The position numbers and the translations under genes were made by a program. From an uncultured Gemmatimonadota bacterium (GTDB taxonomy: Bacteria > JAAXHH01): a stretch of DNA of 64,000 nt. Location: NCBI GenBank assembly GCA_951812955.1, contig OX638340.1:2432001-2496000 (forward strand). The letters run 5' to 3'. This document shows positions 5,437 to 61,542 of this stretch, piece after piece. The notes beneath the pieces were generated by a model, which saw only the letters and a list, made by a program, of their open reading frames with translations, was not told the origin of the DNA and did not search any database. The first letter of the stretch is position 1; each line of letters starts with the position of its first letter.

Positions 5437-6174
5437 TTGCGTATCTTTCCTCTCCCTTCCTGTCCAGGACAGACGGGACCTCTTCGAGTCAGCGGCAAAC
5501 TGAAAACCGCACTTTCGAGACGAATCGACGAGATCGTCGAAGGAGGTCTTGTCATTCCAGATGAAAGCGACGTCGACGGCCAGACGCTTCTCGTGGAGTA
5601 CCCTACACTTTACCCTGGAGACAGTGTCGCCTACGTGGCGCCACGGGTACGAATCGAGGCAGGGGCGAGATCGGCGCTGGATCCCAACCTGACCCGTACC
5701 ATCAAACCATTCATCGCGGATGAGGTGCGAGACTTGTCTTTGGCAGTGGAAAACATCCGCGTTATCGCACCAGATCGCACGCTCTGGGAGAAGCTGTTGA
5801 TCCTGCATGGGTTGTACTGCGGATATCGGGACGCACAGCGTCTACCGGCAGACAGAGATCGGATATCCCGCCACTACTACGATGTTGCCATGATAACGGA
5901 GACCGAGTCCGGCAGGGCCGCTCTATCCAACCTTGAATTGATGGATTCAGTTCGTAAACACAACCTTATTGCGTTTCGACAGGCCTGGAAGAAGTTCGAA
6001 GAGGCCGTACCTGGACGGGTGAAACTGGTTCCTCAGTTGGAACTGCACATGCTGATCGAGCGGGACTATGAAGCCATGCAGGACATGATCCTGGGTGACG
6101 TCCCGAATTTCAGATGGATCGTGGACCAATTGATGCATGCCGAAGCCATTGTCAATGGAACTACGAGAAGTTAA
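5437..6174 (+). CDS. abiEii: AbiEii/AbiGii-family nucleotidyltransferase toxin (DUF1814), TTG start, possibly N-terminally degenerate
   Basis: …IRVIAPDRTLWEKLLILHG… and …RHYYDVAMI… are typical DUF1814 C-terminal motifs. The ORF begins with TTG. The canonical N-terminal GGTAL-type motif is not obvious (GKLKTAL instead). Confidence 0.55.
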   Translation: MRIFPLPSCPGQTGPLRVSGKLKTALSRRIDEIVEGGLVIPDESDVDGQTLLVEYPTLYPGDSVAYVAPRVRIEAGARSALDPNLTRTIKPFIADEVRDLSLAVENIRVIAPDRTLWEKLLILHGLYCGYRDAQRLPADRDRISRHYYDVAMITETESGRAALSNLELMDSVRKHNLIAFRQAWKKFEEAVPGRVKLVPQLELHMLIERDYEAMQDMILGDVPNFRWIVDQLMHAEAIVNGTTRS

Positions 6175-6298
6175 CGTTCATGAATGCCAGGACGGCAGCA
6201 CTATCTCTAATTACACGTCATGATACCTTGACGGTCGTGCTCGATTTCGACGTCAGACAACACGAAGATCAGTCGGACCAATATGAAGGAGCTCCAAC

Positions 6299-6916
6299 AT
6301 GGCAACCCGGCGAGAACTTGCCTTTCCCGTCGAATCTCAGGAAGCCGCTGAACTCGCAATCGAAGATGACCGCACCGGTATCATCCTCGATCCGCTTCGC
6401 TGGCGTCTCCTTGAGATCCTGGGAGCGGGAAAGTCGGTGACGGAGATTTCTGAAGCGCTTGATGTTACGGACGCCCGGGTGCTGTACCACGTGCAGAGAC
6501 TGGCACAGACGGGAGTCGTGCATCTGGAGGATGATGCGGCGGCAGATCCCCGGGAATGGCGGTGTCTGCCCGCGGCGGCAGTGATTAGCGTACAGGAGGA
6601 GCAGGAGGCGGGCAGGTCATCCGGGCAGGAGGACAGACAGGCACAAGTGGCCGTCCCGGAGGCAGTGGCCGGCCAGTTTAACCAGGCTTTTCGCGAAGCG
6701 GCGGAAGGGATGTACGGACCGTCCTTCCAGATGTCCGTCAACCACAACCGCGCGCGGCTGTCAGAAGCCCAGGCCGCCGAATTCAACCGTAGGCTGCTTG
6801 CGCTCATCGAAGAGTACTTCCCTCCCGGAAAAGGAGACCGGTCGGGCGTCAAGTACGGTTTCCACGGCGTGCTAACACCGATCGATCTTCATCCGCTTGG
6901 GGATGCCGAGGGATAG
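6299..6916 (+). CDS. ArsR-family HTH transcriptional regulator with C-terminal extension
   Basis: …ILDPLRWRLLEILGAGKSVTEISEALDVTDARVLYHVQRLAQTGVV… is an ArsR/SmtB-type HTH. At 205 aa it is longer than the minimal ArsR. Confidence 0.6.
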   Translation: MATRRELAFPVESQEAAELAIEDDRTGIILDPLRWRLLEILGAGKSVTEISEALDVTDARVLYHVQRLAQTGVVHLEDDAAADPREWRCLPAAAVISVQEEQEAGRSSGQEDRQAQVAVPEAVAGQFNQAFREAAEGMYGPSFQMSVNHNRARLSEAQAAEFNRRLLALIEEYFPPGKGDRSGVKYGFHGVLTPIDLHPLGDAEG

Positions 6917-7224: not shown

Positions 7225-7852
7225 TCACTCTCCCGCCGCCGGTTCCCATTTGCCAAAACGATCCAGCTTGTCCACCTCATGCACCAGGTTGTGGCACATC
7301 ACGCATGATCTGGTACCGTTGAGCATTTCTCGCAGATAGGGCCGGTGGTCCGGATGCTCCTCGTACGAGCGCGCGCCTGCGTGACATTCGAGGCAGGCCG
7401 TGTTTTCGTAGGGCTCGTACAGCGCGACGGGTTCGGACCACGTCCCCCAGACGTTGTGCCATACGTGCCGCACGCCCCGGATCTTGTCGTCCACGTCCCC
7501 GAACATCGTGTAGTCCGAATGGCAGACGTAGCAGGCATAGTCCGCGGGGATCCGCTTATTCTGGAAATGGGCGGCCGGCAGAAACCGGCCGTCGTCGATA
7601 TACAGGCTTTCCAGGAAGGGTTGGTTGACGTGGCAGGAGACGCAGAACTCGGTCGACTTGGCTTGCTCGTAGTGCTGCACGGTTCCCACCGAGCAGCGCC
7701 ACGCCGGGCAGCAGTAGAAACGTGAAGAACGCGAAGATCATGCCGCCGGCCGAGGCGGTAAGATCGGGCCGCCGCAGGACTACCGCGATCATGGCCAGCG
7801 TAATGGCCGCCAGGACGATCAGGGTGATGGTAAATCCGGTCATTCCGGCCAC
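7225..7852 (-). CDS. NapC/NirT/NrfH-family membrane tetraheme cytochrome c, split into two overlapping ORFs (probable frameshift near 7690-7705)
   Basis: ORF 7556..7852 encodes an N-terminal hydrophobic anchor (MTGFTITLIVLAAITLAMIAVVL…MIFAFFTFLLLPG). ORF 7225..7689 (GTG start, no signal peptide) has four CxxCH motifs (CVSCH, CYVCH, CLECH, CVMCH) in 150 aa. Family members are a single polypeptide of TM helix plus tetraheme domain. Confidence 0.6.
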
Positions 7853-8106
7853 TCAGTTCGACTCCTGTCCCCGGTCGCTATGGCTGCTTCGGTCGGCTCT
7901 ATTGTTCAGGCCGCCGACACTGCTCCGGCCACTTACTCCGCCGAACCGCGCCGGCCGGCTTCCTCACGAAGGTCCCGGGAGAGCGCCCTGATCTCGGCCA
8001 GGTCCTGCACCATCTCGCTCCAGCCGTACCACAGCGCATAGTCGGGATTGTTATGGAAGGTCCCCTGGAATGCCCGCATGCGATGTTCCAGGTGCATCCT
8101 GAAGAG

Positions 8107-9315
8107 TCACTGTTCGATCCTCGAAGGCGCGTCGTGAAACGCCAGCAGGTCGGGATAGTCGTATGCGTAATGTTCCGGCCGGACCAGTACCCCGTCCCGG
8201 TACAGCGCGGAGACGATGCGGATGGCCTCGGCCAGGAGGCGGTCGGTCTCGCGGATCATCTCATCGCCCTTTGCGAGTTCCGCCCGCACGAGGTTTTCCG
8301 AATGGCACTGCTCGCAGATGCCGGTCATGCGGTCGCGCTCCCGCTGCCAGTCCTCCTGGGTCAGCCGGGCCACGTCGGCCTGCCTGACCACATCCAGTCG
8401 CGGGGTGGGGTTGCCGTCCGGGTCCAGCACGCCAAGTGCCTGGAGGATCGTTGCCCGGTCCTCCGCCCACTGCGGGTCTTCCGGCATGGGAAGTCGGACG
8501 GCCAGGAAACCCCAGGCGGTCCGGACGCCGTGATCTCCCTCGGGCATGTGGCAGGTCTGGCACGTAGGCGCCTGGGCATGCTCGGGCAGCGTGCCGTTCT
8601 GCTTGAGCAGATGCCGCACGCCATGCTTGGAGGACGAGTACATTTCCCACTGGGGATGATCGAACCCCATGTGGCACGTCCTGCACGCCTGGGGCTCCCG
8701 GGCCTCCTTCACAGAAAAGAGATGGCGGGTATGACATACGTCGCAGGACGACAGGCCGAAAAGCCCGTCCTGCGCCTTGATCGTCTTAATCTCCTCTTCG
8801 CTCTTGAGGCCGATGCGGTGGCATCCGCCGCAGCCCTTCATACCCTCAGTCAGGGCCATGGGCAGGAAGTGGGTCGTCGGCATGGCGTTCATGCTGGTCC
8901 AGGCAAGGGCGTGCTTGCCCCCCGCGAACTGTTCCACCTGGATCGGATGGCACGTGGCGCACACGTCCGGGGTCGCGACGCCGGCCAGGGCCACGTCCTC
9001 CTCCGTGCGGTGATCGCCGCCGTGACACATGACGCAGTCCACGCCGTTCGTGCTGTGGGTGCTGAGTTCCCAGTCAATTACGATGCCGGGCGTGGCATCC
9101 TGGTGGCAGGCCACGCAGTCGGACGTGGCCCGCGGTGGATCGGCGGAGGGACCGCAGGCGGCAAGGGACAGCAGGAAGAATGATACGATGAAGAAGGATA
9201 CGATGTTGTTAACAAGGATGGCACGGCATACGCGGTACCTGGTTTTAGCAAGGAAGCGACTCCTGGAAAGCAGAGACGTCAGACTACCGGATTGCCGGGC
9301 CATCTTGTACCTCAT
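8107..9315 (-). CDS. Octaheme c-type cytochrome lipoprotein (HAO/ONR/OTR-like multiheme family)
   Basis: Lipoprotein-type signal (…FFLLSLAACG). Eight CxxCH motifs (CVACH, CVMCH, CATCH, CGGCH, CDVCH, CRTCH, CQTCH, CEQCH) within ~340 residues. It sits immediately upstream of the NrfH-like quinol-dehydrogenase-type gene. Confidence 0.8.
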   Translation of the reverse strand: MRYKMARQSGSLTSLLSRSRFLAKTRYRVCRAILVNNIVSFFIVSFFLLSLAACGPSADPPRATSDCVACHQDATPGIVIDWELSTHSTNGVDCVMCHGGDHRTEEDVALAGVATPDVCATCHPIQVEQFAGGKHALAWTSMNAMPTTHFLPMALTEGMKGCGGCHRIGLKSEEEIKTIKAQDGLFGLSSCDVCHTRHLFSVKEAREPQACRTCHMGFDHPQWEMYSSSKHGVRHLLKQNGTLPEHAQAPTCQTCHMPEGDHGVRTAWGFLAVRLPMPEDPQWAEDRATILQALGVLDPDGNPTPRLDVVRQADVARLTQEDWQRERDRMTGICEQCHSENLVRAELAKGDEMIRETDRLLAEAIRIVSALYRDGVLVRPEHYAYDYPDLLAFHDAPSRIEQ

Positions 9316-19274: not shown

Positions 19275-21884
19275 CTACTCCCCGTCCCCATCCCCCACCG
19301 CATCCAGCAGCGCTTCCCGCGTCATGCCATCGGGAGGCGTGTTTAGGCCCGATTCCTCGCCCGGGTCGGCGACGAGCCAGATGCCGCGCTCGAGGGCGTA
19401 GCCATCTCGTTCGGAGGCCTTTTGGAGGAGTTCCTGCAGGTCTTCGCCATCCATCAGGCCCAGCAGCCCGACGGGGATCACCCGGGCGGAGATTCCCCTT
19501 TCGCGCAGGAAGCCCGCGTACCAGTCGGGAGGACGTTCATAGGAGAACACGAGAAAGGGGCGTTCCGGCGTGCCGGCGCCCCGCCAGAATCCCAGGCGAT
19601 ACCAGTCCGGCCGCAGGGAGCGGACGAAGGCGCCGTGGCGCAGCCGGGGATTGATTTCGTCCATGGACTGCCGGTACAGCGTGCCGAGGCGCTCCGCGTT
19701 GGCTTCCTGGAGCTGGATATAGGTCTCGAGGTATCCCGACTTGAGCAGCCACTCGAACCGGTCTTCCCGGTCCAGTCCCATGAGCGACCTGAATTCGTCG
19801 CCGTGGTACAGACCGTTCCGGACGAGATGCCGGATGAAGTACCGGAAATGCAGGTCGTCGAAGACGTCGGTCGCGGCATAGGCGTGCCGCGGACGCGTGA
19901 TATGGGGATCCCAGTCGTGCACGATGGCCTGCGGGGCCCCCTGGAGGCGGCTGTGCCGGGCGATGGCGCGGGCCGGCTCAAAGAGGTGGCGGTTCAGGTA
20001 TGCCATGTCGAGCCGGGAAGGCAGGTCGACGTCCTCCCCGCGGGCGTTCAGGGCGGCTGCGTAGTCGCCGGTGATCTCGCGCTCGCGAGGGGCGCTGACG
20101 CCGGCGTACCAGGCCGTCGGTGTGCCGCCCACGCGGCTGAGGATGGGCATGGCCCACGATTCGAAACGCACGTCGCCCGTCACCGCCGCGCCCCCGGTGT
20201 AACTGGCAGCCGGCGCCACGGTCCAAAGGAAGTCCATCCCGAGGCCGGGCAACGTTCCGGCGAGTTCGGACACGTGTTCATGCCGGCGGGCGATGAAATC
20301 CCAGACGCCTCGAAGCGGTACGGCATCCGTCGTGCCGGTAGAGAGGCCGGCGTCTGCCGAGTCGCCGGGACTGGGGCGGGCTTCGGCGTCCACGCTGGCG
20401 TCTGAGCCGGAACCCGGACCAGCGCCCAGCTCTGCACTTGAACCTGTGCCGGCTCCGGAACCCGTGCCGTCGCCTGTGCCCGCGCCGTCGCCTGTGCCCG
20501 CGCCGGGTCCGTCATCCGGACCGGACGCCGCGCTGCTGAGCACCCGGACCCGTTCGGGCGCCGCCGTCCTTATGGATACGTTGTTGAGGGAGAAATCCGG
20601 TTTCCGGTTGCCGGGCATCTGGGCCGTGGCATAGTCGTGTTCGGGAGACCAGTCTCCGGGGGAATCGACCAGCGCGCGGACGTAGCTCGCGAGTCCGTCC
20701 ATAAAATCATCCAGTCCTTCGAGATCGGCTTCCCGGGGGCGGATGCCCAGGGGCGGCAAGGGCCGGTCGAGCCCGGATAGCACCTGGCGGTCAACGGCAA
20801 GGACGAATCCCTCGTTCAGCCGGCCGGTCCGTCCCGCGGCCGCTACCGCCATGCGGCCGAAGGTCTCCTCGTCGCCTCGCATGGTTTCCAGGTCTTCGGC
20901 CGACCCGATCTCTTCCCGGATCTCCCGGTCGGCGAAAGCGGCGGCGATGATCTCCACCGGAACGCCCACCAGCGCGTATTCGGATCCCCAGCGGTTTCCG
21001 GACATGCGCACGGTCAGCGTGTCCTTCGCATCTGAAACGCCTTCCACCCTGCCCTTGAATCTCGCCGCGGTCCAGTCCACCGGCACGAGCCGATCCCGGT
21101 TCCGGTACTGCAGGCTGGTCCGCAGCTCCTGGTCGCCGCGCAGCAGCAGTTCGACGTCTTCTCCCGCAATCGCGTCCGCGGGGGAGATACGCAAGGTACG
21201 CCGGACTACGCGGTATTCGGGTTCGGGTTCGGGTGCGGGTTCCGGTTCGATCTCCTCTCCAGGGTCCGGCGCTTGAGGTTCCACGAGCAGCGGCTCGGCA
21301 CCGTCGCCCACGAGCAGCCGGGTGCCGGCGCGGGCGGCCACGCTGCCGTCCATGCCCCGCCCGACCGGGTGGCCGTCGGCAATTTCGAAATAGACCACGG
21401 GGTTCAGGACTGGACTGGTTTCGTGGTCGGCGTTCAGCGCGTGCAGGTTGATGTTCAGACGGGCCAAGATCTCGTTGAACTGATACCGGTCGTGGACGCC
21501 GGGATTGACCTTCCTCCGCTCGCTGTAGGGCCCGTCGGAGGGCATCGCCAGCACGAGCACTTTACCCCGCGACACGAAGTTGATGACCAGGTCCACTTCC
21601 TGGATGCTCATGCCCGGATCGCCGCCGCCCAGAAGCACGATGGCGTCGTAGTCCCGGGCGTCCCGTTCGACCATGGCCGGATAATACGGCCGGTAGTCGA
21701 CGTCGAACCCCGCTTCCGAGAACGCCTGTATCATCCCGGTGTGCTCTTCCGGATAGGCCATGGCGTATTCGACGACGAGCAGGCGGGGATCGCCGTTCGG
21801 CCCGGCGGACGGCTCCTGCCTCGCGCTTGCGGAGTAATTGGGCGCCAGGAATACAATCAGGCAGACAATCAGTTTGATTCGCAT
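19275..21884 (-). CDS. Large secreted protein of unknown function with Gly/Thr/Asp-rich repeat linker
   Basis: Signal peptide MRIKLIVCLIVFLAPNYSASA. 869 aa. The internal low-complexity repeat is GAGTGDGAGTGDGTGSGAGTGS. High GC. Confidence 0.6.
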   Translation of the reverse strand: MRIKLIVCLIVFLAPNYSASARQEPSAGPNGDPRLLVVEYAMAYPEEHTGMIQAFSEAGFDVDYRPYYPAMVERDARDYDAIVLLGGGDPGMSIQEVDLVINFVSRGKVLVLAMPSDGPYSERRKVNPGVHDRYQFNEILARLNINLHALNADHETSPVLNPVVYFEIADGHPVGRGMDGSVAARAGTRLLVGDGAEPLLVEPQAPDPGEEIEPEPAPEPEPEYRVVRRTLRISPADAIAGEDVELLLRGDQELRTSLQYRNRDRLVPVDWTAARFKGRVEGVSDAKDTLTVRMSGNRWGSEYALVGVPVEIIAAAFADREIREEIGSAEDLETMRGDEETFGRMAVAAAGRTGRLNEGFVLAVDRQVLSGLDRPLPPLGIRPREADLEGLDDFMDGLASYVRALVDSPGDWSPEHDYATAQMPGNRKPDFSLNNVSIRTAAPERVRVLSSAASGPDDGPGAGTGDGAGTGDGTGSGAGTGSSAELGAGPGSGSDASVDAEARPSPGDSADAGLSTGTTDAVPLRGVWDFIARRHEHVSELAGTLPGLGMDFLWTVAPAASYTGGAAVTGDVRFESWAMPILSRVGGTPTAWYAGVSAPREREITGDYAAALNARGEDVDLPSRLDMAYLNRHLFEPARAIARHSRLQGAPQAIVHDWDPHITRPRHAYAATDVFDDLHFRYFIRHLVRNGLYHGDEFRSLMGLDREDRFEWLLKSGYLETYIQLQEANAERLGTLYRQSMDEINPRLRHGAFVRSLRPDWYRLGFWRGAGTPERPFLVFSYERPPDWYAGFLRERGISARVIPVGLLGLMDGEDLQELLQKASERDGYALERGIWLVADPGEESGLNTPPDGMTREALLDAVGDGDGE

Positions 21885-36376: not shown

Positions 36377-37105
36377 TCAAACGCCTACGCTGCCGGGATG
36401 CCGGTGCTCCACGCGCTCCCGCAGGTCCTCGGCCTCGTCGCGCAGGCGCTCCAGCGCCATACGCCGGCCCATGAGGTAGAAGAAGAGCAGGGTGAAGACG
36501 ACCGCCGACACACCCAGCGCGATGCGCATGTCGACTTCCATGCCCGCTCCCAGGCCCTCTTCCGTCATGACCAGGGAGTCGGGGTGCAGGCCCCGCCACC
36601 ACATGGTCGCGAAATGGATGAAGGGGATATCGATCGTGCCGAGGATGCCCAGTACCGCGAGGAAGGTCTTCACCTGCGGCATGTCGTCGCCGTACACGCG
36701 CAGCATCAGGTAGGCTACGTAGATGAGCCAGAGAATCATGGAGAAGGTGAGCCGGGGGTCCCAGGTCCACCACGTTCCCCACACCGGCTTGCCCCAGATC
36801 GGACCGGTGATCATCACGAAGCAGCAGAAAACGAAACCGATCTCAGCGGCGCTGTAGGCCACGATGTCCCACTTCCGCTCCCGCAGCCACAGGTAGATGA
36901 CGCTCGAAACGCCCACCAGGACAAAGGCGAACTCCGCGATCCAGGCGGATGCTACGTGGAAATACATGATCCGCTGCACGTCGCCCATGACCCGCTCCCG
37001 GGGCGCCCAGATCAGCGAAAGGTACAGCGTGGCGACCAGTCCCAGGAGGCAGATGAGGCCGAAGGGGGTGATGCGCAGGCGGGCGGCTATTCCAGCCATT
37101 TTCAT
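36377..37105 (-). CDS. ccmC: Heme exporter protein CcmC
   Basis: WGTWWTWDPRLT tryptophan-rich WWD motif. Polytopic membrane protein. Confidence 0.85.
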   Translation of the reverse strand: MKMAGIAARLRITPFGLICLLGLVATLYLSLIWAPRERVMGDVQRIMYFHVASAWIAEFAFVLVGVSSVIYLWLRERKWDIVAYSAAEIGFVFCCFVMITGPIWGKPVWGTWWTWDPRLTFSMILWLIYVAYLMLRVYGDDMPQVKTFLAVLGILGTIDIPFIHFATMWWRGLHPDSLVMTEEGLGAGMEVDMRIALGVSAVVFTLLFFYLMGRRMALERLRDEAEDLRERVEHRHPGSVGV

Positions 37106-37782
37106 TCCTCCATAATGTACTCGAACAGCATGACGGACGCGACCAGGAATACGACCGTGAACACCGAAAGCAGCCTGATCCAGTTGGCCATGTCCTGCCA
37201 GTCGCCTCCTTCGAAGGTGGTCCGCGTCGTTTCCACCAGCGCGATCAGGACGGGCGAGGCTACGGGCAGCAGCAAGACCGGCAGCATGACGTCCCGCATG
37301 CGCGTGTTGACGGCCACGGCGGCGAAAAGGGTGGCGACGGACGAGAATCCAACCGTTCCCAGAAAGAATATCACCAACAGTTTAGACAGATGGGGCAGGA
37401 TTGTCATGTTGAAAAACAGGACGAACAGCGGAAGCATCGCCAGCTGGACCAGGCCGATGAGCGTGACGTTGCCTAGCAACTTGCCCAGGAATATGGATCC
37501 GCGGTCGATGGGCGCGAGGAGCAGTCCATCGAGTGTTCCCCGGTCTTTTTCCGGCGAGAAGGACCGGCTGGCGCTCAACATGCCTGCGAAGGCGAAGGCT
37601 ACCCAGATCATGCCGGGCACCACGCGCTGCACCACGTCCGCCCCCGCGTTGAAGGCGAAGTTGAAGATGACCACGACGATCAGCGAAAAGACGAACATGG
37701 TCACGACCCGCTCGCGGGTCCGGTATTCAACGACCATGTCCTTGCGGTAGATCTGCCATGACTGGGCGAGTAAGGATCTCAT
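37102..37782 (-). CDS. ccmB: Heme exporter permease CcmB
   Basis: 226-aa six-TM protein between ccmA and ccmC. 4-nt overlap with ccmC. Confidence 0.75.
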   Translation of the reverse strand: MRSLLAQSWQIYRKDMVVEYRTRERVVTMFVFSLIVVVIFNFAFNAGADVVQRVVPGMIWVAFAFAGMLSASRSFSPEKDRGTLDGLLLAPIDRGSIFLGKLLGNVTLIGLVQLAMLPLFVLFFNMTILPHLSKLLVIFFLGTVGFSSVATLFAAVAVNTRMRDVMLPVLLLPVASPVLIALVETTRTTFEGGDWQDMANWIRLLSVFTVVFLVASVMLFEYIMEE

Positions 37783-37912: not shown

Positions 37913-38623
37913 CTACACAGCGTGGTCCCGGTAAGCCTGTTCGAAATCTACCCTGGACAGGTCGCGTGTCCCGGCTTCGAAAACCAGACGACCCCGGTTC
38001 AGGATGGCGACGCGGTCGGCGGATTCCAGTCCGCGGGCCAGATCGTGGGTCACCAGGAGGATCGTCTTGTTCCGAGCGGTCAGGATCGTTTTCAGCATGA
38101 CCAGCGCGTCCTGGTCCAGCCCCGAGTAGGGTTCGTCGAGTAGCAGGACGTCCGGGTCGTGCAGCAAGGCGCGGGCCAGCGCCACCCGCTGGCGCATGCC
38201 GCGCGAAAGCGTGCGCACCGGACTCCCCGCCCTGGCATCCATGCCCACCGTGCGCAGCAGCGCTTCGATCCGCTCCTCGCCGTTTTTGATTCCGTACAGT
38301 TTTCCGTAGAACCGCATGTTCTCCCGTACGGTCAATTCGTCGTAGAGATAGGTCTGGTAGGACAGCACGCCGATCCGTTCTCCCAGGGACTCGTCGCGGT
38401 CCCCGGTGATTTCGTCTCCGTCCAGCAACACCTGGCCACGGGACGGACGCACGAGCCCGGCGATGACGCCCAGGAGGGTCGATTTGCCCGCGCCGTTGGG
38501 ACCGAACAGCGCCAGGAAGGATCCCGGCGCTACTTCCATGTCCACCCGGTGCAGTGCCCGGAAGCGGCCATAGGTCTTGGTCAACTGGCGGATGCTGATG
38601 CCGGGCGCGGATCGATCACCCAT
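37913..38623 (-). CDS. ccmA: Heme exporter ATP-binding protein CcmA
   Basis: Walker A GPNGAGKST, signature LSRGMRQRVALARALL, Walker B VLLLDEP. The start is placed at MGDRSAP. Confidence 0.8.
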   Translation of the reverse strand: MGDRSAPGISIRQLTKTYGRFRALHRVDMEVAPGSFLALFGPNGAGKSTLLGVIAGLVRPSRGQVLLDGDEITGDRDESLGERIGVLSYQTYLYDELTVRENMRFYGKLYGIKNGEERIEALLRTVGMDARAGSPVRTLSRGMRQRVALARALLHDPDVLLLDEPYSGLDQDALVMLKTILTARNKTILLVTHDLARGLESADRVAILNRGRLVFEAGTRDLSRVDFEQAYRDHAV

Positions 38624-40434: not shown

Positions 40435-40488
40435 AGTCCGGACCGGCTCCCCTCGTACGCGCGCCGGCCAGACCGGTGCGACGGCTGG

Positions 40489-40962
40489 TCAGGACCGGGG
40501 AAGCGGTTCCGGCGACTTAGGCTCGGTCTGCTCATACTGACCGTATCCCCCCTCGGCCTCGTACTTGGACGGACACTTGGCGTACAGTGTATGGGCGTTG
40601 AAGGTCCCATCCCGGGCGTATTCGCCCTCCACGACCACTTCGGAATCGTCCCTGAACGTGTCGGGGACTACGCCGGTGTATACGACGGGGGCCTCGACAC
40701 CGCCCTCGCGGGCAATGAAACGGATGCGCATGGAGCCCACGTCTCCGCGCTGGATCGATCCGTTCACGACCTTGCCGTGCAGACGCATATTCTCATCGTA
40801 ATCCACCTCGCCGGTTTCTACGGCGGCCTTCAGTTCACTCACCGTCAGGTAGTACATGGTCGCATCGGTCGCTCCGGTATAGATCAGGTAGCCGATGGCG
40901 GCGATCACCAGTCCGAAGCCCACCAGGAATTTACGTTGCTTCTTCCGCTTGCGGTTTTCCAT
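40489..40962 (-). CDS. ccmE: Cytochrome c maturation heme chaperone CcmE, CxxxY variant
   Basis: N-terminal anchor KFLVGFGLVIAAIGYLIY followed by an OB-fold region. The C-terminal …FNAHTLYAKCPSKYEAE has C-P-S-K-Y where canonical CcmE has H-x-x-x-Y. Confidence 0.7.
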   Translation of the reverse strand: MENRKRKKQRKFLVGFGLVIAAIGYLIYTGATDATMYYLTVSELKAAVETGEVDYDENMRLHGKVVNGSIQRGDVGSMRIRFIAREGGVEAPVVYTGVVPDTFRDDSEVVVEGEYARDGTFNAHTLYAKCPSKYEAEGGYGQYEQTEPKSPEPLPRS

Positions 40963-41266
40963 AGCTTTTCTCCATGAATGCCCTGTCCTGCGCGACCTCC
41001 GCAATATAGGCGATACGCCCGGTTCCGGCAAGCACTATTTGACCCGAAGAAGGCGCATGCAACTGCCCGTGAGCAGGGGTATTCGGGGCGAAAACACCCG
41101 CTTCTCGCACAGGCGCGCGCGCAGGCGAATGTGCTTGACACCCACCCTGGCCACGCCTACCTTACGCCGGAGTTAACCCCGAAATGAATCTCGACCAGGG
41201 ATCGTGACGCCTGCCCCGTAAAATCCTGATATCGCGCCCCGTTTCGTCTTACTCTTCAGGAGCATC

Positions 41267-42184
41267 ATGACCGCTTTCACGTCTGCCCACGATGTCATCC
41301 AGCGCTTCGAAGCCCAGGACTATATCTGCGGTCCCGACCTGGCTACGCCCGTCTTCCTCATGGAACGGCTCGAAAAGCCGTTGCTGGTCGAGGGGCCGCC
41401 GGGCGTGGGGAAGACGGAGATCGCCAAGATGCTGGCCGACGCGCTGGGACGCCGCCTGATCCGCCTGCAGTGCTACGAGGGACTGGACGAATCCAAAGCG
41501 CTCTATGAATGGGAATACACCAAGCAGCTGCTGTATACGCAGATGCTCAAGGACCGCATCGGCGAACTGTTGAAACAGACGGAAACGCTCGGCAACGCGG
41601 TGGAAGCGCTCAACCGGGAGGACAGCGCATTCTTCTCCAGGCAATTCCTGCTCCCGCGGCCCCTGCTGGAGGCGATTCTCGCGCCGGAACCCGTCGTCCT
41701 CCTGGTCGACGAGATAGACCGGTCGGACGATGAGTTCGAAAGCTTCCTCCTCGAGGTGCTGAGCGACTTCCAGGTCAGCATCCCGGAACTCGGCACGCTG
41801 ACCGCGGCGCAGCGCCCCCTCGTGGTGCTGACGAGTAACGCCAACCGGAACCTGTCCGAGGCGCTGAGACGGCGGTGCCTGTATCTCTACATCAATTACC
41901 CCACTCTCGAGCAGGAGGTCCGGATCGTCCTATGCAAGACGCCGGGCATCGACGAGGACCTGGCGAACCAGGTCGTCCGGTTCGTCCAGAAAATCAGAAC
42001 GCTCAACATGCGCAAGCCCCCGAGCATCGCCGAAACGATCGACTGGGCGCTGGCGCTGGTGGTCCTGAACGCGCGGCACCTTTCGCGAGACACCCTTTCC
42101 AGCTCGCTGAACGTCCTGATGAAGGACCGCGAGGATATCGAACGGATCATGCGGGACGGCTACCATGATCAAGCGGCTGGTTGA
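41267..42184 (+). CDS. MoxR/CoxD-like AAA+ ATPase
   Basis: Walker A GPPGVGKTE, Walker B VLLVDEIDR. Followed by a VWA partner gene with a 20-nt overlap. Confidence 0.8.
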   Translation: MTAFTSAHDVIQRFEAQDYICGPDLATPVFLMERLEKPLLVEGPPGVGKTEIAKMLADALGRRLIRLQCYEGLDESKALYEWEYTKQLLYTQMLKDRIGELLKQTETLGNAVEALNREDSAFFSRQFLLPRPLLEAILAPEPVVLLVDEIDRSDDEFESFLLEVLSDFQVSIPELGTLTAAQRPLVVLTSNANRNLSEALRRRCLYLYINYPTLEQEVRIVLCKTPGIDEDLANQVVRFVQKIRTLNMRKPPSIAETIDWALALVVLNARHLSRDTLSSSLNVLMKDREDIERIMRDGYHDQAAG

Positions 42185-43370
42185 GTTCGCCAGGACACTG
42201 AGACAATCCGGAGTGCGCGTTTCCATGGCCGAGACCCTGGACGCCGCCGAGGTGTTGCGGCACGCGCCGGTCACCGAACGGCCGGCCTTCAAGGCGTCCC
42301 TGCGGACCACCCTGGTAAAGTCCCACGAGGACATCCCCGCCTTCGACGAGGCCTTCGAACGGTTTTTCCTCGTCCAGGTGGGTGGGGAGACCGAGGGTCC
42401 GCCCGACGGCCATCCCGACCTCGACGACATCCACGATGACGGGGAACAGGACATCCGGCGTTTCCAGGACGAGCAGGGAGAGGCCATGGCCGGGGAAGGG
42501 GAAGGGGAGCCCGCGGACGGCGACGAACCAGATGAATTGGAAGGTGAACTGGAGCGGATGCTCGCCCGCGTGCAGGTGGGTGAACAGGCGTCCGATGCGG
42601 TCACCGAGTCCGGCGCACAGCCGAACCAGCAGGCGGAAGACGTCGATCTCTACCAGGAACTGCCGCCGGGCGACGTCGATAACCTGTACGAGGCGGTGGA
42701 GGAACTCGCCCGGAATCTCGTGACGCGCAAATCGCTGCGATTCAGGAAATCGCGCCACGGCCGGGTCGATATCAAGAAGACGATCCAGCGGAGTTTTCGC
42801 ACGGGCAACCTGCCCTTTCACATCATCTACAAGCACCGCAAGATCAAGAAGAACGAACTGGTCGTGCTGTGCGACGTATCGGGATCGGTCTGGGAGGTCG
42901 CCCGGTTCTTCATCAAGCTGGTCCACGAGATGCAAAACCAGTTCAGCCGGGCCCGCAGTTTTCTATTCGTGGACCGGATCAACGAGGTGACGGACGAGTT
43001 CGACAGCAGGCCCTTCGAAGATACAGTCGAGAACCTGAAGGACGACCATGCCCTTAATTTCTTCGGACTGAGCGATTTCGGCAGGGCCTTCTACCAGTTC
43101 CACGACGAACACCTCCTTTCCCTCTCTGGGAACACGGTGCTCGTCATCCTTGGCGACGCGCGGACGAACTGGTTCGATCCCCAGGACTGGGTACTTGGAG
43201 AATTGAACACAAGGGTGCACCAGACGATCTGGCTGAACCCGGAACCTGTGCAGTACTGGGACACCGACGACTCCGTCATGTCCAAATACAGCCCGCACTG
43301 CGATCACGTGCTGGAATGCCGGAATCTGGTCCAACTTAAGGAGATCGGCGAACTGATCCTCAGGGCCTGA
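42165..43370 (+). CDS. VWA-domain protein (CoxE-like partner of MoxR ATPase)
   Basis: A C-terminal VWA domain with MIDAS-like DVSGS (…VVLCDVSGSVWEV…). The N-terminal region is typical of CoxE-like proteins. Confidence 0.65.
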   Translation: MIKRLVEFARTLRQSGVRVSMAETLDAAEVLRHAPVTERPAFKASLRTTLVKSHEDIPAFDEAFERFFLVQVGGETEGPPDGHPDLDDIHDDGEQDIRRFQDEQGEAMAGEGEGEPADGDEPDELEGELERMLARVQVGEQASDAVTESGAQPNQQAEDVDLYQELPPGDVDNLYEAVEELARNLVTRKSLRFRKSRHGRVDIKKTIQRSFRTGNLPFHIIYKHRKIKKNELVVLCDVSGSVWEVARFFIKLVHEMQNQFSRARSFLFVDRINEVTDEFDSRPFEDTVENLKDDHALNFFGLSDFGRAFYQFHDEHLLSLSGNTVLVILGDARTNWFDPQDWVLGELNTRVHQTIWLNPEPVQYWDTDDSVMSKYSPHCDHVLECRNLVQLKEIGELILRA

Positions 43371-43386
43371 CACCGATCGGACGGGT

Positions 43387-44172
43387 ATGATGACACGTTT
43401 TAAAAACATGAATTGCGTCGTCCTTGCGGCGCTTTGCTGCCTGCTCGGCGTGGCGCTGTGGACGAATCGCGGCGCCGGTGATTCGGGCCACGACCTCTTC
43501 CTGCGCAACGACTTCACCTTTGGCCGGGTAGTATACCAGAATTTCGGGGGCTTCTACCGGGGTTTCGGTTTCGGGCGGTGGTCGGTGGATTTCCCGTCTG
43601 CGGATTCCAACGTGATCCGCGCCCTGCGGGCCACCACTTCTCTCAAGATCAACGAACCGCAATCCGTGGAACTTACCGATCCCGAACTGTTCGATATTCC
43701 CTTTCTGTATATCCTGGAAGTCGGATCCCTGCAGTTCAGTCCGGAGGAAGTGGACGCCCTGCGGGAGTACCTATTGCGCGGGGGGTTCCTTCTGGTGGAC
43801 GACTTCCACGGTTCGCGGCAGTGGGCGGTCTGGGAATCGCAGATCAAGCGGGTGTTTCCCGGGCGGGACATCGAGGAGATACCGGCCGACCACCCGATCC
43901 TGCACTGTTACTATGATTTCGACACCTACCCCCTGGTGCCCGGGATCGCGGCGCTGTGGAACATGAACCACTACGAAAGGGACGGCGCCCTGTACGGCCA
44001 CAGGCTGCGGGGGATATTCGACGACGGCGGAAGGCTCATGGTGCTGATGAACTGGAACGCAGACCTGGGCGACGGCTGGGAACACGCGGCCGATCCCGGG
44101 TATCCGCGGGAGTTTTCCGTAACCGCCTACCGCCTGGCCGTCAATTACGCCATCTACGCGATGACGCATTGA
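43387..44172 (+). CDS. DUF4159-domain secreted protein
   Basis: Signal peptide, then …DFPSADSNVIRALRATTSLKINEP…FLYILEVGSLQFSPEEVDALREYLLRGGFLLVDDFHG… DUF4159 commonly accompanies MoxR/VWA pairs. Confidence 0.5.
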   Translation: MMTRFKNMNCVVLAALCCLLGVALWTNRGAGDSGHDLFLRNDFTFGRVVYQNFGGFYRGFGFGRWSVDFPSADSNVIRALRATTSLKINEPQSVELTDPELFDIPFLYILEVGSLQFSPEEVDALREYLLRGGFLLVDDFHGSRQWAVWESQIKRVFPGRDIEEIPADHPILHCYYDFDTYPLVPGIAALWNMNHYERDGALYGHRLRGIFDDGGRLMVLMNWNADLGDGWEHAADPGYPREFSVTAYRLAVNYAIYAMTH

Positions 44173-51940: not shown

Positions 51941-54439
51941 TTATGAAGGATTTTCGTCCGTCTCCCCGGTGGATTCGTCCGCTGCGGCCGACGCCGATTC
52001 GTCATCTTCCTCGCCGGGCGTAATCCTGGACACGTCGATCACCCGGTCCCCCTCGTCGAGGTTGATGAGCCGGACACCCTGGGTATTCCGGCCGATGGGT
52101 CGCAGGTCGCGGACAGGCAGGCGTATGATGAGGCCTTTCGTGGTGATAATCATCAGTTCGTCTTCGTCGGAGACGGCGTGAATCGACACGACGGGACCGT
52201 TGCGTTCGCTGGTGCGTATGTTGCTCACGCCCTTGCTGTGCCGGCGGGTCAGCCGGTAGCTCGCGATGTCCGTCCGCTTACCGTAGCCGTTTTCCGTCAC
52301 GGAAAGCAGCGTGGTGTCCCGTCCGGACGCCAGCATGCCCACGACCCGGTCGTCTTCGCCGAGGCGAATGCCACGCACTCCCTGTGCGCCGCGGCCCATC
52401 GTCCGGACATCGCTCTCGTGAAAACGGACGGCCTGGCCATTCCGGCTGGCGATGACGATGTCGTTGCCTCCATCGGTAAGCAGGGCCTCGATGAGGGCGT
52501 CGCCCTCGAGGATGTTCAGTGCAACGATGCCGTTCCGGCGGGGATTCCCATAAGCGGAAAGAACGGTCTTCTTCACGAGACCACCCCGCGTAACCATCAT
52601 GATGTAGTGGTCGTCGTCGAACGTCCTGATCGGCAGGAAGGCCGCAATACTCTCGCCCTGGCCGAGCTGCAGCAGGTTGACCACGGCCTTGCCACGGGCC
52701 GTGCGTCCGGCTTCGGGGATCTCCCACACCTTGAGCCAGTAACACTTACCTCGGTTCGTGAAGAACAGGATATAGGAATGGGTCGAGGCGGAGAAGAGGT
52801 GCTCCACGAAGTCCTCTTCACGGGTCTTCATGCCGGTGATCCCCTTGCCGCCGCGGTTCTGGCTGCGATAGGTGTCCATGGGCAGGCGCTTGACGTAGCC
52901 GGCGTGGGAGATGGTGATGACCATTTCCTCGTCGGCGATCAGGTCCTCGATGCTGAGATCGCCTTCGATGTCGATCAACTCGGTCCGTCTTTCATCGCCG
53001 TAGCGTTCCTTCAGGTCGAGCATCTCTTCCTTGATGATCTGCATCCGGCGATCCAGGCGTGAGAGGATATCCCGGAAATCGGCGATCCGGGCGACCAGTT
53101 CGTTGTATTCTTCCTCGAGCTTGTCCCTTTCCAGTCCGGTCAGGCGCTGCAGGCGCATGTCCAGGATGGCCTCGACCTGGGCACGGGACAGTCCGAACTC
53201 GTCCACCAGGATCTCCATGGCCTCCTCGCCGGTACGCGACCCGCGGAGGATTTCGATCACGCGGTCCACGTTGTCCAGCGCGATGCGCAGACCTTCCACG
53301 ATGTGGGCCCGTTGCTCGGCCTTCTCGAGGTCGAAGGTGGTCCGGCGCACCAGCACCTCGTGACGGTGGTCGATGAAGTGCTGAATGCATTCCTTGATGT
53401 TCAGGACGCGGGGACGTCCGTCCACGAGCGCCAGCATGGTGACGCCGATGGTGGTCTCGAGCGACGTCATCTTGAAGAGGTGGTTCAGTACGATTGTGCC
53501 CGGGATATCCCGCCGCACGTCGATGGCGATGCGCAGACCCGACCGGTCGGACTCGTCCCGTATATCGGTAATGCCCAGTATCTGCTTTTCACGGACGAGG
53601 TCGGCGATCTTCTCGATCAGGCTGGCCTTGTTGACCTTGTACGGGATTTCCGTGATGACGATGGTTTCCTTCTCGCTTTGCTCATGAAGCTCGATCTCCG
53701 TGCGGGCGCGCACCTTGATCTTGCCGCGGCCGGTGTGGAAATACTCTTTAATCGCGTTGCGGCCGTATATGATCGCGCCGGTGGCAAGATCGGGACCCTG
53801 GATGTGTCCGGCGATCTCATCGATCGTGATTTCCGGGTTCTCGATCACCGCCACCATCCCATCCACCACCTCGCTGAGGTTATGGGAAGGCAGGTTGGAT
53901 GCCATGCCCACGCCAATACCGAGCGACCCGTTGCAAAGCAGGTTGGGGAACTTGCCCGGAAGCACCGTCGGCTCGTCTTTCGACTCGTCGTAGTTGGGCA
54001 TGAAATCGACGGTGTTCTTGTCGATATCCTCCATCATCTCGATGGCCAGGCGGGACATCCTCGATTCGGTGTACCGCATGGCGCCCGGGGGATCGCCGTC
54101 TATGGAACCGAAATTCCCCTGTCCGAAGACCATGGGGTAACGCATGCTGAACGGCTGGGCCATCCGCGCGAGGGTGTCGTATACGGCCAGGTCTCCGTGG
54201 GGATGGTAATCACCGATCGTCTGGCCGACGATCTTGGCGCATTTCCGCGTGGGCCGTCCCGGTGTGAGGTTCAGGTCGCGCATCGCCACGAGTATGCGTC
54301 GCTGGGACGGTTTGAACCCGTCGCGGACGTCCGGAATCGCCCGTGACAGATTCACACTCATGGAGAAGTCGAGATAGGAACTCTTCATCTCGTCTTCGAT
54401 GAAGATGGGCTGAATATTGTCGTGTTGTTCTACCGCCAT
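51941..54439 (-). CDS. gyrA: DNA gyrase subunit A
   Basis: …LSRAIPDVRDGFKPSQRRILVAMRDL…AMRYTESRMS (active-site Tyr context). 832 aa. Confidence 0.95.
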   Translation of the reverse strand: MAVEQHDNIQPIFIEDEMKSSYLDFSMSVNLSRAIPDVRDGFKPSQRRILVAMRDLNLTPGRPTRKCAKIVGQTIGDYHPHGDLAVYDTLARMAQPFSMRYPMVFGQGNFGSIDGDPPGAMRYTESRMSRLAIEMMEDIDKNTVDFMPNYDESKDEPTVLPGKFPNLLCNGSLGIGVGMASNLPSHNLSEVVDGMVAVIENPEITIDEIAGHIQGPDLATGAIIYGRNAIKEYFHTGRGKIKVRARTEIELHEQSEKETIVITEIPYKVNKASLIEKIADLVREKQILGITDIRDESDRSGLRIAIDVRRDIPGTIVLNHLFKMTSLETTIGVTMLALVDGRPRVLNIKECIQHFIDHRHEVLVRRTTFDLEKAEQRAHIVEGLRIALDNVDRVIEILRGSRTGEEAMEILVDEFGLSRAQVEAILDMRLQRLTGLERDKLEEEYNELVARIADFRDILSRLDRRMQIIKEEMLDLKERYGDERRTELIDIEGDLSIEDLIADEEMVITISHAGYVKRLPMDTYRSQNRGGKGITGMKTREEDFVEHLFSASTHSYILFFTNRGKCYWLKVWEIPEAGRTARGKAVVNLLQLGQGESIAAFLPIRTFDDDHYIMMVTRGGLVKKTVLSAYGNPRRNGIVALNILEGDALIEALLTDGGNDIVIASRNGQAVRFHESDVRTMGRGAQGVRGIRLGEDDRVVGMLASGRDTTLLSVTENGYGKRTDIASYRLTRRHSKGVSNIRTSERNGPVVSIHAVSDEDELMIITTKGLIIRLPVRDLRPIGRNTQGVRLINLDEGDRVIDVSRITPGEEDDESASAAADESTGETDENPS

Positions 54440-54495
54440 GCTTTCCCCTTGAACTTGTTATCCCGCGTTCCGGGCGTGCCAGGCAAGCGCCGGTA

Positions 54496-57185
<2,690 letters not shown>

Positions 57186-57194
57186 GCCCGAGTC

Positions 57195-58304
57195 TCAGTC
57201 ATAAGGCGTCACCGCGCCTTCGTGGACGCGGAAACGGGTAATCCCGCGCCGGTAGTCCCCGATATCGCTTTCTTTGGCCGTCGTAATGAAGGTCTGGCCG
57301 TACGTGGGAACCATTTCCATCAGGCGGCCCGTCCTGGCAGCGTCGATCTCCGCGAAGATGTCATCGAGAAGCAGCAGCGGGGGGGCCTGCAACTGGCGCC
57401 AGAGAAAGCGGGCTTCCGCCAGCTTCAGGGCCGTCGCCGCCGTCTTGTGCTGCCCCTGCGATCCAAATGTCTGCAGCGACACCCCGTTCATCCGGATGGA
57501 CAGGTCGTCCCGGTGCGGCCCCACCTCCGTCATGCCCCGCGCCCGTTCCCGGGACGCGGCACGGTCCAGCGCCTCCTCGAAGGCGGCCTCGATATCGGCC
57601 AGGGCCTCGAAATCGAAGGATGGCGCATAGCCGATCTCCAGTCGCTCCGCGTCTTCACTGACGGAGGCGTGAATACCCGACGCTTCATCCTTCAGGTCCG
57701 CGATCACTTCCACCCGTTTCCTCATGATGCGGCTGCCAAGCTCGACAAGCGGCACGTTCCATACTTCGAGGTCTCCCATCCTTCCCGGGTTCTCCTGTAA
57801 CGCACGCAAGGCCTCGTTGCGTTGGCGGACCACCCGTCTGTACTCCTGCAGGGCGGAAAGATACGCCGCGTTGGACTGCGAGATCGCAATGTCCAGAAAA
57901 CGCCGGCGTGAACTCGGCGAGCCCTGGACGAGCCTCCGGTCGTCCGGTGAAATCACCACGGCTGCCAGGATGCCGTACAGATCCGACAGGTTCCGCCGGG
58001 GAGACTCGTTTACGAATACCTTCTTTCCCGCCTGGCGGGCGTACCTGATCTGCACCTCGACCTCCCTGCCCTCCGCCGACCGCCCCGTTCCCTGTATCAG
58101 GAAATGGTCCGATCCCATGCGCACGAGATCCCGGTCCTGTGACTCGCGGCAGGAACGGGCCACGCATAGGTAGTAAATCGCCTCCAGGAGGTTGGTCTTG
58201 CCCTGGCCGTTCGTTCCGATAAAAACATTTGTCTGTAAATCACAGGCCAGCGACAGGTCCGTGTAATTCCTGAAATGGCGGAGGTCCAGCCCTTGCAGGT
58301 GCAC
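57195..58304 (-). CDS. recF: DNA replication and repair protein RecF
   Basis: MHLQGLDLRHFRNY…GTNGQGKTNLLEAIYYL Walker A and an SMC-like signature. Confidence 0.9.
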   Translation of the reverse strand: MHLQGLDLRHFRNYTDLSLACDLQTNVFIGTNGQGKTNLLEAIYYLCVARSCRESQDRDLVRMGSDHFLIQGTGRSAEGREVEVQIRYARQAGKKVFVNESPRRNLSDLYGILAAVVISPDDRRLVQGSPSSRRRFLDIAISQSNAAYLSALQEYRRVVRQRNEALRALQENPGRMGDLEVWNVPLVELGSRIMRKRVEVIADLKDEASGIHASVSEDAERLEIGYAPSFDFEALADIEAAFEEALDRAASRERARGMTEVGPHRDDLSIRMNGVSLQTFGSQGQHKTAATALKLAEARFLWRQLQAPPLLLLDDIFAEIDAARTGRLMEMVPTYGQTFITTAKESDIGDYRRGITRFRVHEGAVTPYD

Positions 58305-58306
58305 CT

Positions 58307-59437
58307 TTAACTTTCCGGTTCGGTCGTTCTAAAGGGCATGATCAGGCACTGGTAGTCCTCGCCCTCCGCTTCTTCTTTGGAAGGGGTGATGATCCCCGCG
58401 CTGACGGGTGAATCGAGTTTGAAAACCACTTCGTCGCTCTCGATCCGTTCCACGACATCGAGCAGATACCGGAAGTCGTAGGTCGTATCCATGGCTTCAC
58501 CTTCGTATTCGGCCGGCACTTCCTCCCGGGCTTCTCCGCCGATGTCATGGCTGGACGAACTCAATTCGACGAACCCCGGCCGGAACGAATACCGAATCTG
58601 CCGGGTGGAGGGGTTGGACAGGACGGACACCCGACGGACGGCGCTTTCCAGTTCTTCGCGGTTCACCTTGACCACCTTGTCGTTCCCCGTGGGAATAACC
58701 CGTTCGTAATCCGGATAGGTCGCTTCGATCAGCCTGGCGAACAGCTGGGCGTTCTCGAGTTCGAAATGGACGTGGTTCTGGCCGATCGTGATGCGGGACG
58801 GCGTATCCGATTCTCCGATGAGGCGCGAGAGGTTGTTCAGCGCTTTTGGCGGCACGATGATCCCCTCCGTGCCCTCATCGGAAACATCACAGGGGAGGGT
58901 CGTCTTGGCCAGGCGGTGCCCATCGGTTGCCACCATCCGGACGGCGCCTCTGCCTATGCGCAGGAAAGCGCCCCACAGACTCGGGTGTATCTCGTCCTTC
59001 GATACCGCATACACTGTCTTGCGGATCAACCGCTGCAACGAAGACGCCGGCAGGGAAATGGTCTGATCCGAAGGCAGATCGGGCATCGCCGGGTACTCTT
59101 CCTTGCTGATGCCCACCAGGCGGAACACCCCCCTGTCGCACCTGACCGTCACCTTGACCCCGTCCACCTCGATATCCACGGGCGCATCTGGTAACTCGCG
59201 CACCATCTCCGCGAATTTCCTTCCGGGCACCGTGATAGAGCCTCCCTCCGTTATCTGGGCGGGTATCTTCGTCACGATGAATATATCCAGATCGGTGGCC
59301 CCTATCGTCAGGTGGCCATCTTCGGTCTCGAGCAGCAAGTTGGACAGGATGGGCAGGGTGGACTTCGGTGGGACGACATTCAGGACGGTCTGTATACCGC
59401 TCATCAGCGTGGAACTGGCCGGTATGGTGATCTTCAC
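58307..59437 (-). CDS. dnaN: DNA polymerase III beta sliding clamp
   Basis: VKITIPASSTLMSGIQTVLNVVPPKSTLPILSNLLLETEDGHLTIGATDLD… The start is placed at the GTG (VKITI); the track ORF has an upstream extension. Confidence 0.85.
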   Translation of the reverse strand: MKITIPASSTLMSGIQTVLNVVPPKSTLPILSNLLLETEDGHLTIGATDLDIFIVTKIPAQITEGGSITVPGRKFAEMVRELPDAPVDIEVDGVKVTVRCDRGVFRLVGISKEEYPAMPDLPSDQTISLPASSLQRLIRKTVYAVSKDEIHPSLWGAFLRIGRGAVRMVATDGHRLAKTTLPCDVSDEGTEGIIVPPKALNNLSRLIGESDTPSRITIGQNHVHFELENAQLFARLIEATYPDYERVIPTGNDKVVKVNREELESAVRRVSVLSNPSTRQIRYSFRPGFVELSSSSHDIGGEAREEVPAEYEGEAMDTTYDFRYLLDVVERIESDEVVFKLDSPVSAGIITPSKEEAEGEDYQCLIMPFRTTEPES

Positions 59438-59512
59438 AGAGGTACTCCTTTGGGCAATCGTCGCCGGTTGCCTTGTTCGATGCACTCGGCATGGAATGAA
59501 CAAAGGCCGCAA

Positions 59513-60180
59513 TTTGTACAGTAACCTTTTACCACTATTGAATATTATAAAGAAAACAGGAGGCAGTACGCAAGGGATTTGTGAGGCAAATCCTACTTCA
59601 TGTTGTATAACGGCGTGGGTAGTCCACTGAAAAAGTACAATATATTGTGTATATGTATTAATATAGTATGAGTATATAAGAAAGACATAATACTAATAAA
59701 GGATGTGGATATGTGCATAAGTGCGTCATATGGATGATAACCACCAATTAAATCAGTTAATTACGTAAAAAACACCATGTGGAAAAAGTAGCACCTAAAC
59801 AGATGTTTATCCACACTTATCCACACACTAAAGACCAGGTACGGCAAAAACACCCGTTTATACACATTGCATCGACAATTCCTATACCCTTATCCCCCGG
59901 GTTATCCACATTAAATACAGCCCCGAATGGGCCTGTTGCGTACATGAACTGACCCGCACCGCTACGTGGCCGTTCCGTCCGGATCGGAAGCCTATCCACA
60001 TCGAGGTCGGATTCCCGTAGTGGATAGGTGTGGAAACTTCGGAAACACAGCGAGTAAACTCTTGTCGGAGAGGAGGTTATGATAGTCTTATATTGTCAAC
60101 AAAATGTGGATAACCACCAACTTATCCACATCGTGGTGGGGGAATTGCCTGGTTGGAGAGGGTGTTGAACGGCAGGCGGG
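59513..60180. other. oriC: Chromosomal replication origin oriC (DnaA-box cluster plus AT-rich unwinding region)
   Basis: TTATCCACA-type boxes at ~59827, 59837, 59902, 59992 (CTATCCACA), 60020 (rc), 60105 (rc) and 60122, plus weaker ones (TGTGGATAT ~59704). An AT-rich stretch lies at 59580-59800. Located between dnaA and dnaN. Confidence 0.8.

Positions 60181-61542
<1,362 letters not shown>

Follow-up and report, generated by a model that had tools for sequence, protein, structure and literature searches.

A Cys-type CcmE and its operon partners in an uncultured FCB-group lineage

The 64-kb window (the whole stretch of DNA that was analysed) encodes a CcmE protein that carries cysteine at the position of His130 of Escherichia coli CcmE, and its gene heads a ccmABCD operon. 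This protein is very probably the haem chaperone of the cytochrome c maturation variant known as System I*, where by analogy with characterised proteins it would bind haem through Cys130 and transfer it to CcmF. It is a further member of an already described variant and the motif itself is not new. The operon around it probably lost ccmH, and it includes a pair of genes that recurs in ccm operons of distant lineages.

Identity and motif of CcmE

The ccmE reading frame starts with ATG at 40962 on the minus strand and encodes 157 amino acids, the stop codon being included in the interval shown in Table 1. The longest reading frame opens upstream with TTG at 41031; ATG was taken as the start because 157 amino acids is the length of all close homologs. 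The C-terminus of the translation reads ...GTFNAHTLYAKCPSKYEAEGGYGQYEQTEPKSPEPLPRS, and the C-terminal end of the 157-residue protein counted from ATG reads ...DGTFNAHTLYAKCPSKYEAEGGYGQYEQTEPKSPEPLPRS. The protein matches the Pfam CcmE family PF03100 (E = 1.9e-26, 92.7 bits compared to a gathering cutoff of 24.6) over profile positions 2-98 of 99. The NCBIfam CcmE equivalog models all scored below their cutoffs (best 76 bits compared to 126) because of divergence from His-type CcmE. The significant phmmer matches among all PDB chains are CcmE structures only.

The AF2 model, which was built on an alignment of 43 homologs, has a mean pLDDT of 83. The model consists of an N-terminal helix (residues 3-33), OB-fold strands between residues 37 and 128, and a low-confidence tail from about residue 131. 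The first four ranks in the Foldseek search of this model against PDB are the CcmE structures 8ce8_E, 1lm0, 1j6q, and 1sr3, and Desulfovibrio vulgaris 2kct is found at rank 11 with 36% identity. As modelled, the haem chaperone is anchored in the membrane by a transmembrane (TM) helix at about residues 3-33; the OB fold covers residues 37-128, and the C-terminal tail behind it is flexible.

The original prediction was that this CcmE has Cys-x-x-x-Tyr for His-x-x-x-Tyr, and both alignment methods bear it out. The phmmer alignments against PDB place a-k-C130-p-s-k-Y134 of the window protein over a-k-H130-d-e-n-Y134 of E. coli (8ce8_E and 1sr3_A) and over a-k-H-d-e-n-Y of Shewanella (1j6q), and the window motif is also aligned with t-k-C-p of D. 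vulgaris (2kct). The MAFFT alignment of E. coli MG1655 CcmE with 14 homologs puts C130 and Y134 in the same columns as E. coli H130 and Y134. Against both E. coli CcmE and CxxxY sequences, it is Cys and not His that occupies the canonical column. His-type CcmE has His in the H130 column as part of HxxxY, whereas the window protein has Cys130 there; the feature of System I* CcmE, Cys for His with Tyr at +4, is present as C130-P-S-K-Y134. The residue numbers 130 and 134 equal the E. coli numbering by coincidence.

The motif is conserved among the homologs. Among the 120 best matches from a database of 5.8 billion proteins, CPSKY is found in 113 sequences, CPSKF in five, and CASKY in one, and the remaining sequence is truncated or frameshifted. 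HxxxY is absent from the last 60 residues of all 120 sequences. Residues C130, S132, K133, and Y134 are invariant in the 43-sequence alignment (identity down to 36%), and C130 is located two residues past the last beta strand of the AF2 model.

CcmE with CXXXY is the hallmark of System I* in archaea, Desulfovibrio, and other bacteria (PMC3601427, PMC9084895). The C-P-S-K-Y of the window was expected to fit this published spacing and it does so exactly: a 2011 review reported CPSKY as the motif of most variant CcmEs (25 of 36 bacterial genomes) and Phe in place of Tyr in four variant CcmEs (PMC3601427). According to the account relayed in that review, System I* was first described in archaea and some bacteria by Allen et al. 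in 2006, with the absence of CcmH as part of the description, and the Desulfovibrio operon was tested by Goddard et al. in 2010 (via PMC3601427).

The window CcmE is 99% identical to the CcmE on the 3.9-Mb metagenome-assembled genome (MAG) chromosome OY762445.1 and to that of "Gemmatimonadetes bacterium APA_bin_41". It is 79-95% identical to the CcmEs of MAGs labelled Latescibacterota or Gemmatimonadota.

Table 1. Coordinates of the ccm genes, the CcmE residues, the cytochrome genes, and the ccmH genes of sister lineages. Positions are those of the window except for the ccmH rows, which give positions in the named loci.
Feature	Positions	Strand	Evidence or details
ccmE	40489..40962	-	Pfam PF03100, PDB phmmer, AF2 model, Foldseek
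C130-P-S-K-Y134 codons (CXXXY)	40561..40575	-	Alignment to E. coli H130...Y134; C130 codon 40573-40575, Y134 codon 40561-40563
H124 codon (the nearby His)	40591..40593	-	Not at canonical position
Zinc-ribbon membrane protein, 208 aa	39808..40434	-	Pfam DZR / Zn_Ribbon_1
Beta-sandwich protein, 395 aa	38616..39803	-	Pfam PF13620, 30.7 bits, under cutoff 32.3
ccmA, ABC ATPase, 236 aa	37913..38623	-	Pfam ABC_tran; length equals that of homologs
ccmB	37102..37782	-	Pfam CcmB, 2.2e-35; TIGR01190 top NCBIfam match
ccmC	36377..37105	-	Pfam Cytochrom_C_asm; TIGR01191
ccmD, alternative family, 51 aa	36098..36253	-	TIGR04391 CcmD_alt_fam, 41.7 bits, cutoff 24
Octahaem cytochrome c	8107-9315	-	8 CXXCH; Pfam Multi-haem_cyto
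NapC/NirT-like tetrahaem cytochrome	7225-7689	-	4 CXXCH; Pfam Cytochrom_NNT
Sister-lineage ccmH, L004	10458-10937		PF03918
Sister-lineage ccmH, L023	10437-10931		PF03918
Sister-lineage ccmH, L024	10460-10951		PF03918

The ccm operon and the distribution of ccmH

The operon consists of seven genes on the minus strand in the order ccmE, zinc-ribbon protein, 395-aa protein, ccmA, ccmB, ccmC, and ccmD. The genes overlap or are tightly spaced; ccmA starts at 38623, which gives an 8-nt overlap with the end of the gene before it, and ccmC and ccmB overlap by 4 nt. The ccmA product scored 129 bits with TIGR01189 (cutoff 131.6). In the alignment with E. coli CcmC, from which one ORF of locus L021 was left out of account since it was the wrong gene, the WWD motif of CcmC is retained, as are the counterparts of H60 and H184. 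The earlier assignment of this machinery to the variant type of System I agrees with the Cys in the His130 column, the OB fold, and the position of the gene at the head of a ccmABCD operon.

The seven-gene order from ccmE to ccmD is kept in all 15 related genome loci of the window lineage. Comparing the window to these loci (L006-L020), CcmB and CcmC are 87-99% identical, and at least 92% except in the most divergent genome (L019). The identity is 79-99% for CcmE, 75-96% for the 395-aa protein, and 63-90% for the zinc-ribbon protein. Divergent from ccmE, at 41267-44172 on the plus strand, are genes for a MoxR-like AAA ATPase, a CoxE-like VWA protein, and a DUF4159 protein. This trio adjoins ccmE in L001-L005 and L023, and not in L024.

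Homologs of ccmF and ccmH were searched by tblastn in the window and 20 related loci. The search found neither gene in the 64-kb window, and in 15 related genomes it found neither of them within 10 kb of ccmE. The sister lineages (64-70% CcmE identity; L004/5, L023, and L024/25) have a ccmH gene (PF03918) that separates ccmE from the zinc-ribbon gene; in the window, a 54-bp gap (40435-40488) occupies the corresponding site. The canonical CcmH motif is LRCxxC. The CcmH of the sister lineages exhibits the Cys pattern C-x-C-G-C...C-x-C instead. When a sister CcmH was used as the query against the 5.8-billion-protein database (exact-word seeding), 19 proteins were retrieved and none of them is encoded on the complete 3.7-4.0 Mb chromosomes of the lineage. 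Because the sister lineages carry ccmH while the loci of the window lineage and this CcmH search are without it, we infer that the operonic ccmH was probably lost in the window lineage and kept in the sister lineages. The absence of CcmH does not define System I*; the sister lineages combine Cys-type CcmE with CcmH. CcmH has been reported in about one third of bacteria with Cys-type CcmE, and its absence is not regarded as characteristic (PMC3601427).

The octahaem and tetrahaem cytochromes (7225-9315) are likely substrates of this Ccm system. Their genes are adjacent and likely form a quinol-linked redox module. Since the window encodes cytochromes with eight and four CXXCH sites, the organism needs a working maturation system. 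The octahaem cytochrome c also shows distant resemblance to the hydrazine dehydrogenase family.

Several other features of the window were recorded. The gyrA, gyrB, and dnaA genes are clustered at 51941-61542 on the minus strand, which probably places the window near the chromosomal replication origin. An AbiEii-type nucleotidyltransferase toxin gene adjoins a winged-helix/MarR-like gene at 5437-6916 (plus strand), and the two may constitute a type IV toxin-antitoxin pair. The 869-aa ORF at 19275-21884 (minus strand) has no Pfam or NCBIfam match.

The zinc-ribbon and beta-sandwich gene pair

The two genes between ccmE and ccmA encode membrane proteins that share a helical motif. The zinc-ribbon protein consists of an N-terminal TM helix, a cytoplasmic CcmI-N-like helical module, and a C-terminal double zinc ribbon. 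The top NCBIfam match of its residues 4-80 is TIGR03142 (cytochro_ccmI) with E = 5e-3 and 17.1 bits, which is below the cutoff of 29.3. Homologs of the zinc-ribbon protein reached up to 27.7 bits (E = 2.7e-6) with this model, which is still below the cutoff. TIGR03142 is the top NCBIfam match for the N-terminal module of four homologs, and it is matched by 36 of the 84 family members examined at E <= 0.01. An exhaustive phmmer search retrieved 3921 cluster representatives at E <= 1e-3. Two further loci, one from Acidobacteriota and another with Cys-type CcmE, encode small TM proteins between ccmF/ccmH and ccmA, and TIGR03142 is the top match of these proteins too, again below the cutoff. No TPR was identified in the zinc-ribbon protein by Pfam, and its C-terminal half consists of a linker and the double zinc ribbon.

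The 395-aa protein consists of a signal or anchor, a periplasmic CarboxypepD_reg-like beta-sandwich, a second beta domain, a TM helix, and a cytoplasmic helical tail. Its AF2 model is of mediocre quality (pLDDT 60.8) and the fold matches are generic (transthyretin-like, pilin, and Ig-like beta sandwiches), so they give no clue to function. The tail is aligned by hhalign with the N-terminus of the zinc-ribbon protein with a probability of 86.6% (E = 4.4e-6), and this is where the helical motif common to both proteins is found. TIGR03142 is the top match for the tail of one of four homologs of the 395-aa protein (E = 0.0028), and it has no match in the window protein. The distant homolog P0221 is one chain that contains the beta-sandwich region, the TM helix, the motif, and the zinc ribbon.

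The pair is also seen in loci L027-L033. In all six distant loci examined, the zinc-ribbon gene follows ccmH and/or a ccmG-like thioredoxin gene and is in turn followed by a homolog of the 395-aa protein gene. Two of these loci have complete operons with Cys-type CcmE. L032 has the order ccmE(CPTRY)-ccmF-ccmH-ccmG-ZnR-X-ccmA-ccmB-?-ccmC-ccmD and L033 has the order ccmE(CPSRY)-ccmF-ccmH-ZnR-X-ccmABCD, where ZnR is the zinc-ribbon gene, X is the gene of the 395-aa family, and the question mark is one uncharacterised ORF. The protein of the 395-aa family carries a fused dihaem cytochrome c domain in L031 and L032. Judged from these gene orders, the pair behaves as a regular part of ccm operons that has gone unannotated, and both complete operons with Cys-type CcmE contain it. 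No paper that describes the pair was found in a literature search on ccm genes.

The zinc-ribbon protein resembles CcmI/CycH (TIGR03142) in its N-terminal TM helix that is followed by a cytoplasmic helical segment, and its gene is placed after ccmH/ccmG where ccmI often lies. Unlike CcmI, the zinc-ribbon protein lacks both a second TM helix and a periplasmic TPR domain; it has a cytoplasmic double zinc ribbon, and the periplasmic domain is on a separate partner protein. CcmI boosts cytochrome production and is not required for it (PMC3601427). We tentatively propose, as a possibility that falls somewhat short of probable, that the pair is an undescribed and widely conserved System I* accessory. 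It may do the job of CcmI, either in tethering or chaperoning apocytochromes or in coupling to a cytoplasmic signal, and in the window lineage it may compensate for the apparent loss of ccmH. This function was deduced solely from gene association.

Haem handling by the Cys-type CcmE

The family membership, fold, motif position and conservation, operon context, and presence of substrates described above were observed directly. For the steps of haem handling, we follow the literature on related systems, which is the source for Cys as the haem-binding residue, for Tyr as a ligand, for the release step by CcmAB, and for the transfer of haem to CcmF. One N-terminal TM helix is predicted to anchor CcmE, with the OB-fold domain in the periplasm and the flexible tail starting at C130-P-S-K-Y134. 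By analogy, CcmC with its WWD motif and two His ligands would present haem at the outer face of the membrane. Cys130 in place of His130 would then bind a haem vinyl group, with Tyr134 as the putative iron ligand, and the CcmAB(D) ATPase would free holo-CcmE. Holo-CcmE would pass its haem to the CcmF synthetase, which is presumed to be encoded elsewhere, and CcmF would attach it to apocytochromes at their CXXCH sites, for example to the octahaem and tetrahaem proteins of the window. The downstream half of this pathway (CcmF and CcmH) is assumed, with neither gene found in the window or within 10 kb of ccmE in the 15 related genomes.

The characterised proteins differ in the way that haem is bound. 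The CcmE of Methanosarcina acetivorans binds haem covalently in an SDS-stable and C120-dependent manner, and its C120A variant loses both the haem on CcmE and the production of cytochrome c (PMC9084895). Covalent, SDS-stable haem is also reported for the Cys-type CcmE of Desulfovibrio desulfuricans (PMC3601427). The window protein may be the same System I* CcmE with Cys130 as a non-covalent thiolate ligand of iron rather than a vinyl thioether, which we regard as unlikely while giving it some weight. D. vulgaris CcmE (2KCT), which has the KCP motif in common with the window protein, is reported to bind ferric haem non-covalently through C127 (PMC3884852, citing Aramini 2012). That result was obtained in vitro with an isolated domain, and the covalent haem of the D. 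desulfuricans and M. acetivorans proteins argues for the thioether. A haem site at H124, with the Cys as an incidental residue, has a negligible probability, as does a Cys codon that results from a sequencing error or a pseudogene lesion; the sole support for either is the presence of His124 six residues upstream of Cys. The nearby His was described earlier as having two residues between it and Tyr, which is correct for H124-T-L-Y127, and its column is variable. Among 119 homologs the column holds H in 42, N in 26, T in 13, E in 12, and others including D and Q in the rest, thus H124 is substituted in 77 of them. It is aligned by phmmer with a non-His residue of E. coli CcmE, and in the model it is part of the last beta strand (residues 121-128). 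The alignments, the variable column, and the position within the strand effectively refute H124 as the haem ligand. Of the 120 best homologs, which come from many independent assemblies, 119 have the Cys, and this rules out Cys130 as a sequencing artefact.

The remaining alternative is that CcmABCDE has no part in cytochrome c synthesis and fulfils another role, for example haem export or delivery of haem to other periplasmic haemoproteins. The tblastn results for ccmF and ccmH in the window and near ccmE of the 15 related genomes are in its favour, as is the exact-word-seeded database search with the sister CcmH, in which the 3.7-4.0 Mb chromosomes of the lineage gave no match. However, the same operon keeps ccmH beside ccmE in the sister lineages, and distant lineages have ccmE-ccmF-ccmH followed by both extra genes and ccmABCD. 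Since complete ccm operons with the same extra genes are found in distant lineages, a complete maturation operon is the ancestor of the window operon. The window proteins with eight and four CXXCH sites also need a maturation system, and unlinked ccmF genes are common. An uncoupled CcmABCDE is thus very improbable, and a System I* chaperone that serves cytochrome c maturation is the preferred reading of the window CcmE.

As a System I* chaperone, the window CcmE can be compared with three characterised systems. The Desulfovibrio proteins (D. desulfuricans and D. vulgaris, 2KCT) likewise have the OB fold, Cys for His, and the K-C-P start of the motif, and Desulfovibrio ccmE is likewise encoded with ccmABCD and without an adjoining ccmH. 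The identity between D. vulgaris 2KCT and the window CcmE is about 36% over the OB domain. Unlike in Desulfovibrio, ccmF is not adjacent in the window and two extra genes separate ccmE from ccmA; the window comes from an uncultured lineage of the FCB group, whereas Desulfovibrio is a deltaproteobacterium. The archaeal CcmE of M. acetivorans (C120) has the CXXXY motif as in the window CcmE. Archaea are without CcmD, CcmH, and CcmI (PMC9084895), whereas the window operon has the alternative-family CcmD and a CcmI-N-like protein, and the sister lineages of the window organism have CcmH. E. coli CcmE (1SR3 and 8CE8 chain E) is the best PDB match of the window CcmE by sequence and by structure, and has the same length class, TM anchor, OB fold, and Tyr134. 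The two proteins differ in His130, which is Cys130 in the window, and are about 25% identical. Their CcmC partners have the WWD motif and both His residues in common. The H130C variant of E. coli CcmE takes up haem and fails to pass it on (PMC9084895), therefore the partner proteins of a Cys-type CcmE must be co-adapted.

The finding extends Cys-type CcmE to another uncultured lineage, and beyond that it is of little importance. Automated annotation from His-type models puts Cys-type proteins under the equivalog cutoffs, which is seen again here. Cys-type CcmE is a useful marker for reconstructing respiration in the MAGs of this lineage, as these encode multihaem cytochromes that depend on such machinery. 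The context, namely the probable loss of ccmH and the gene pair, is of more use than the CcmE motif. The related lineages with and without operonic ccmH offer a natural comparison for what replaces CcmH in System I*, and the zinc-ribbon/beta-sandwich pair is a concrete and testable candidate for the missing CcmI-like function.
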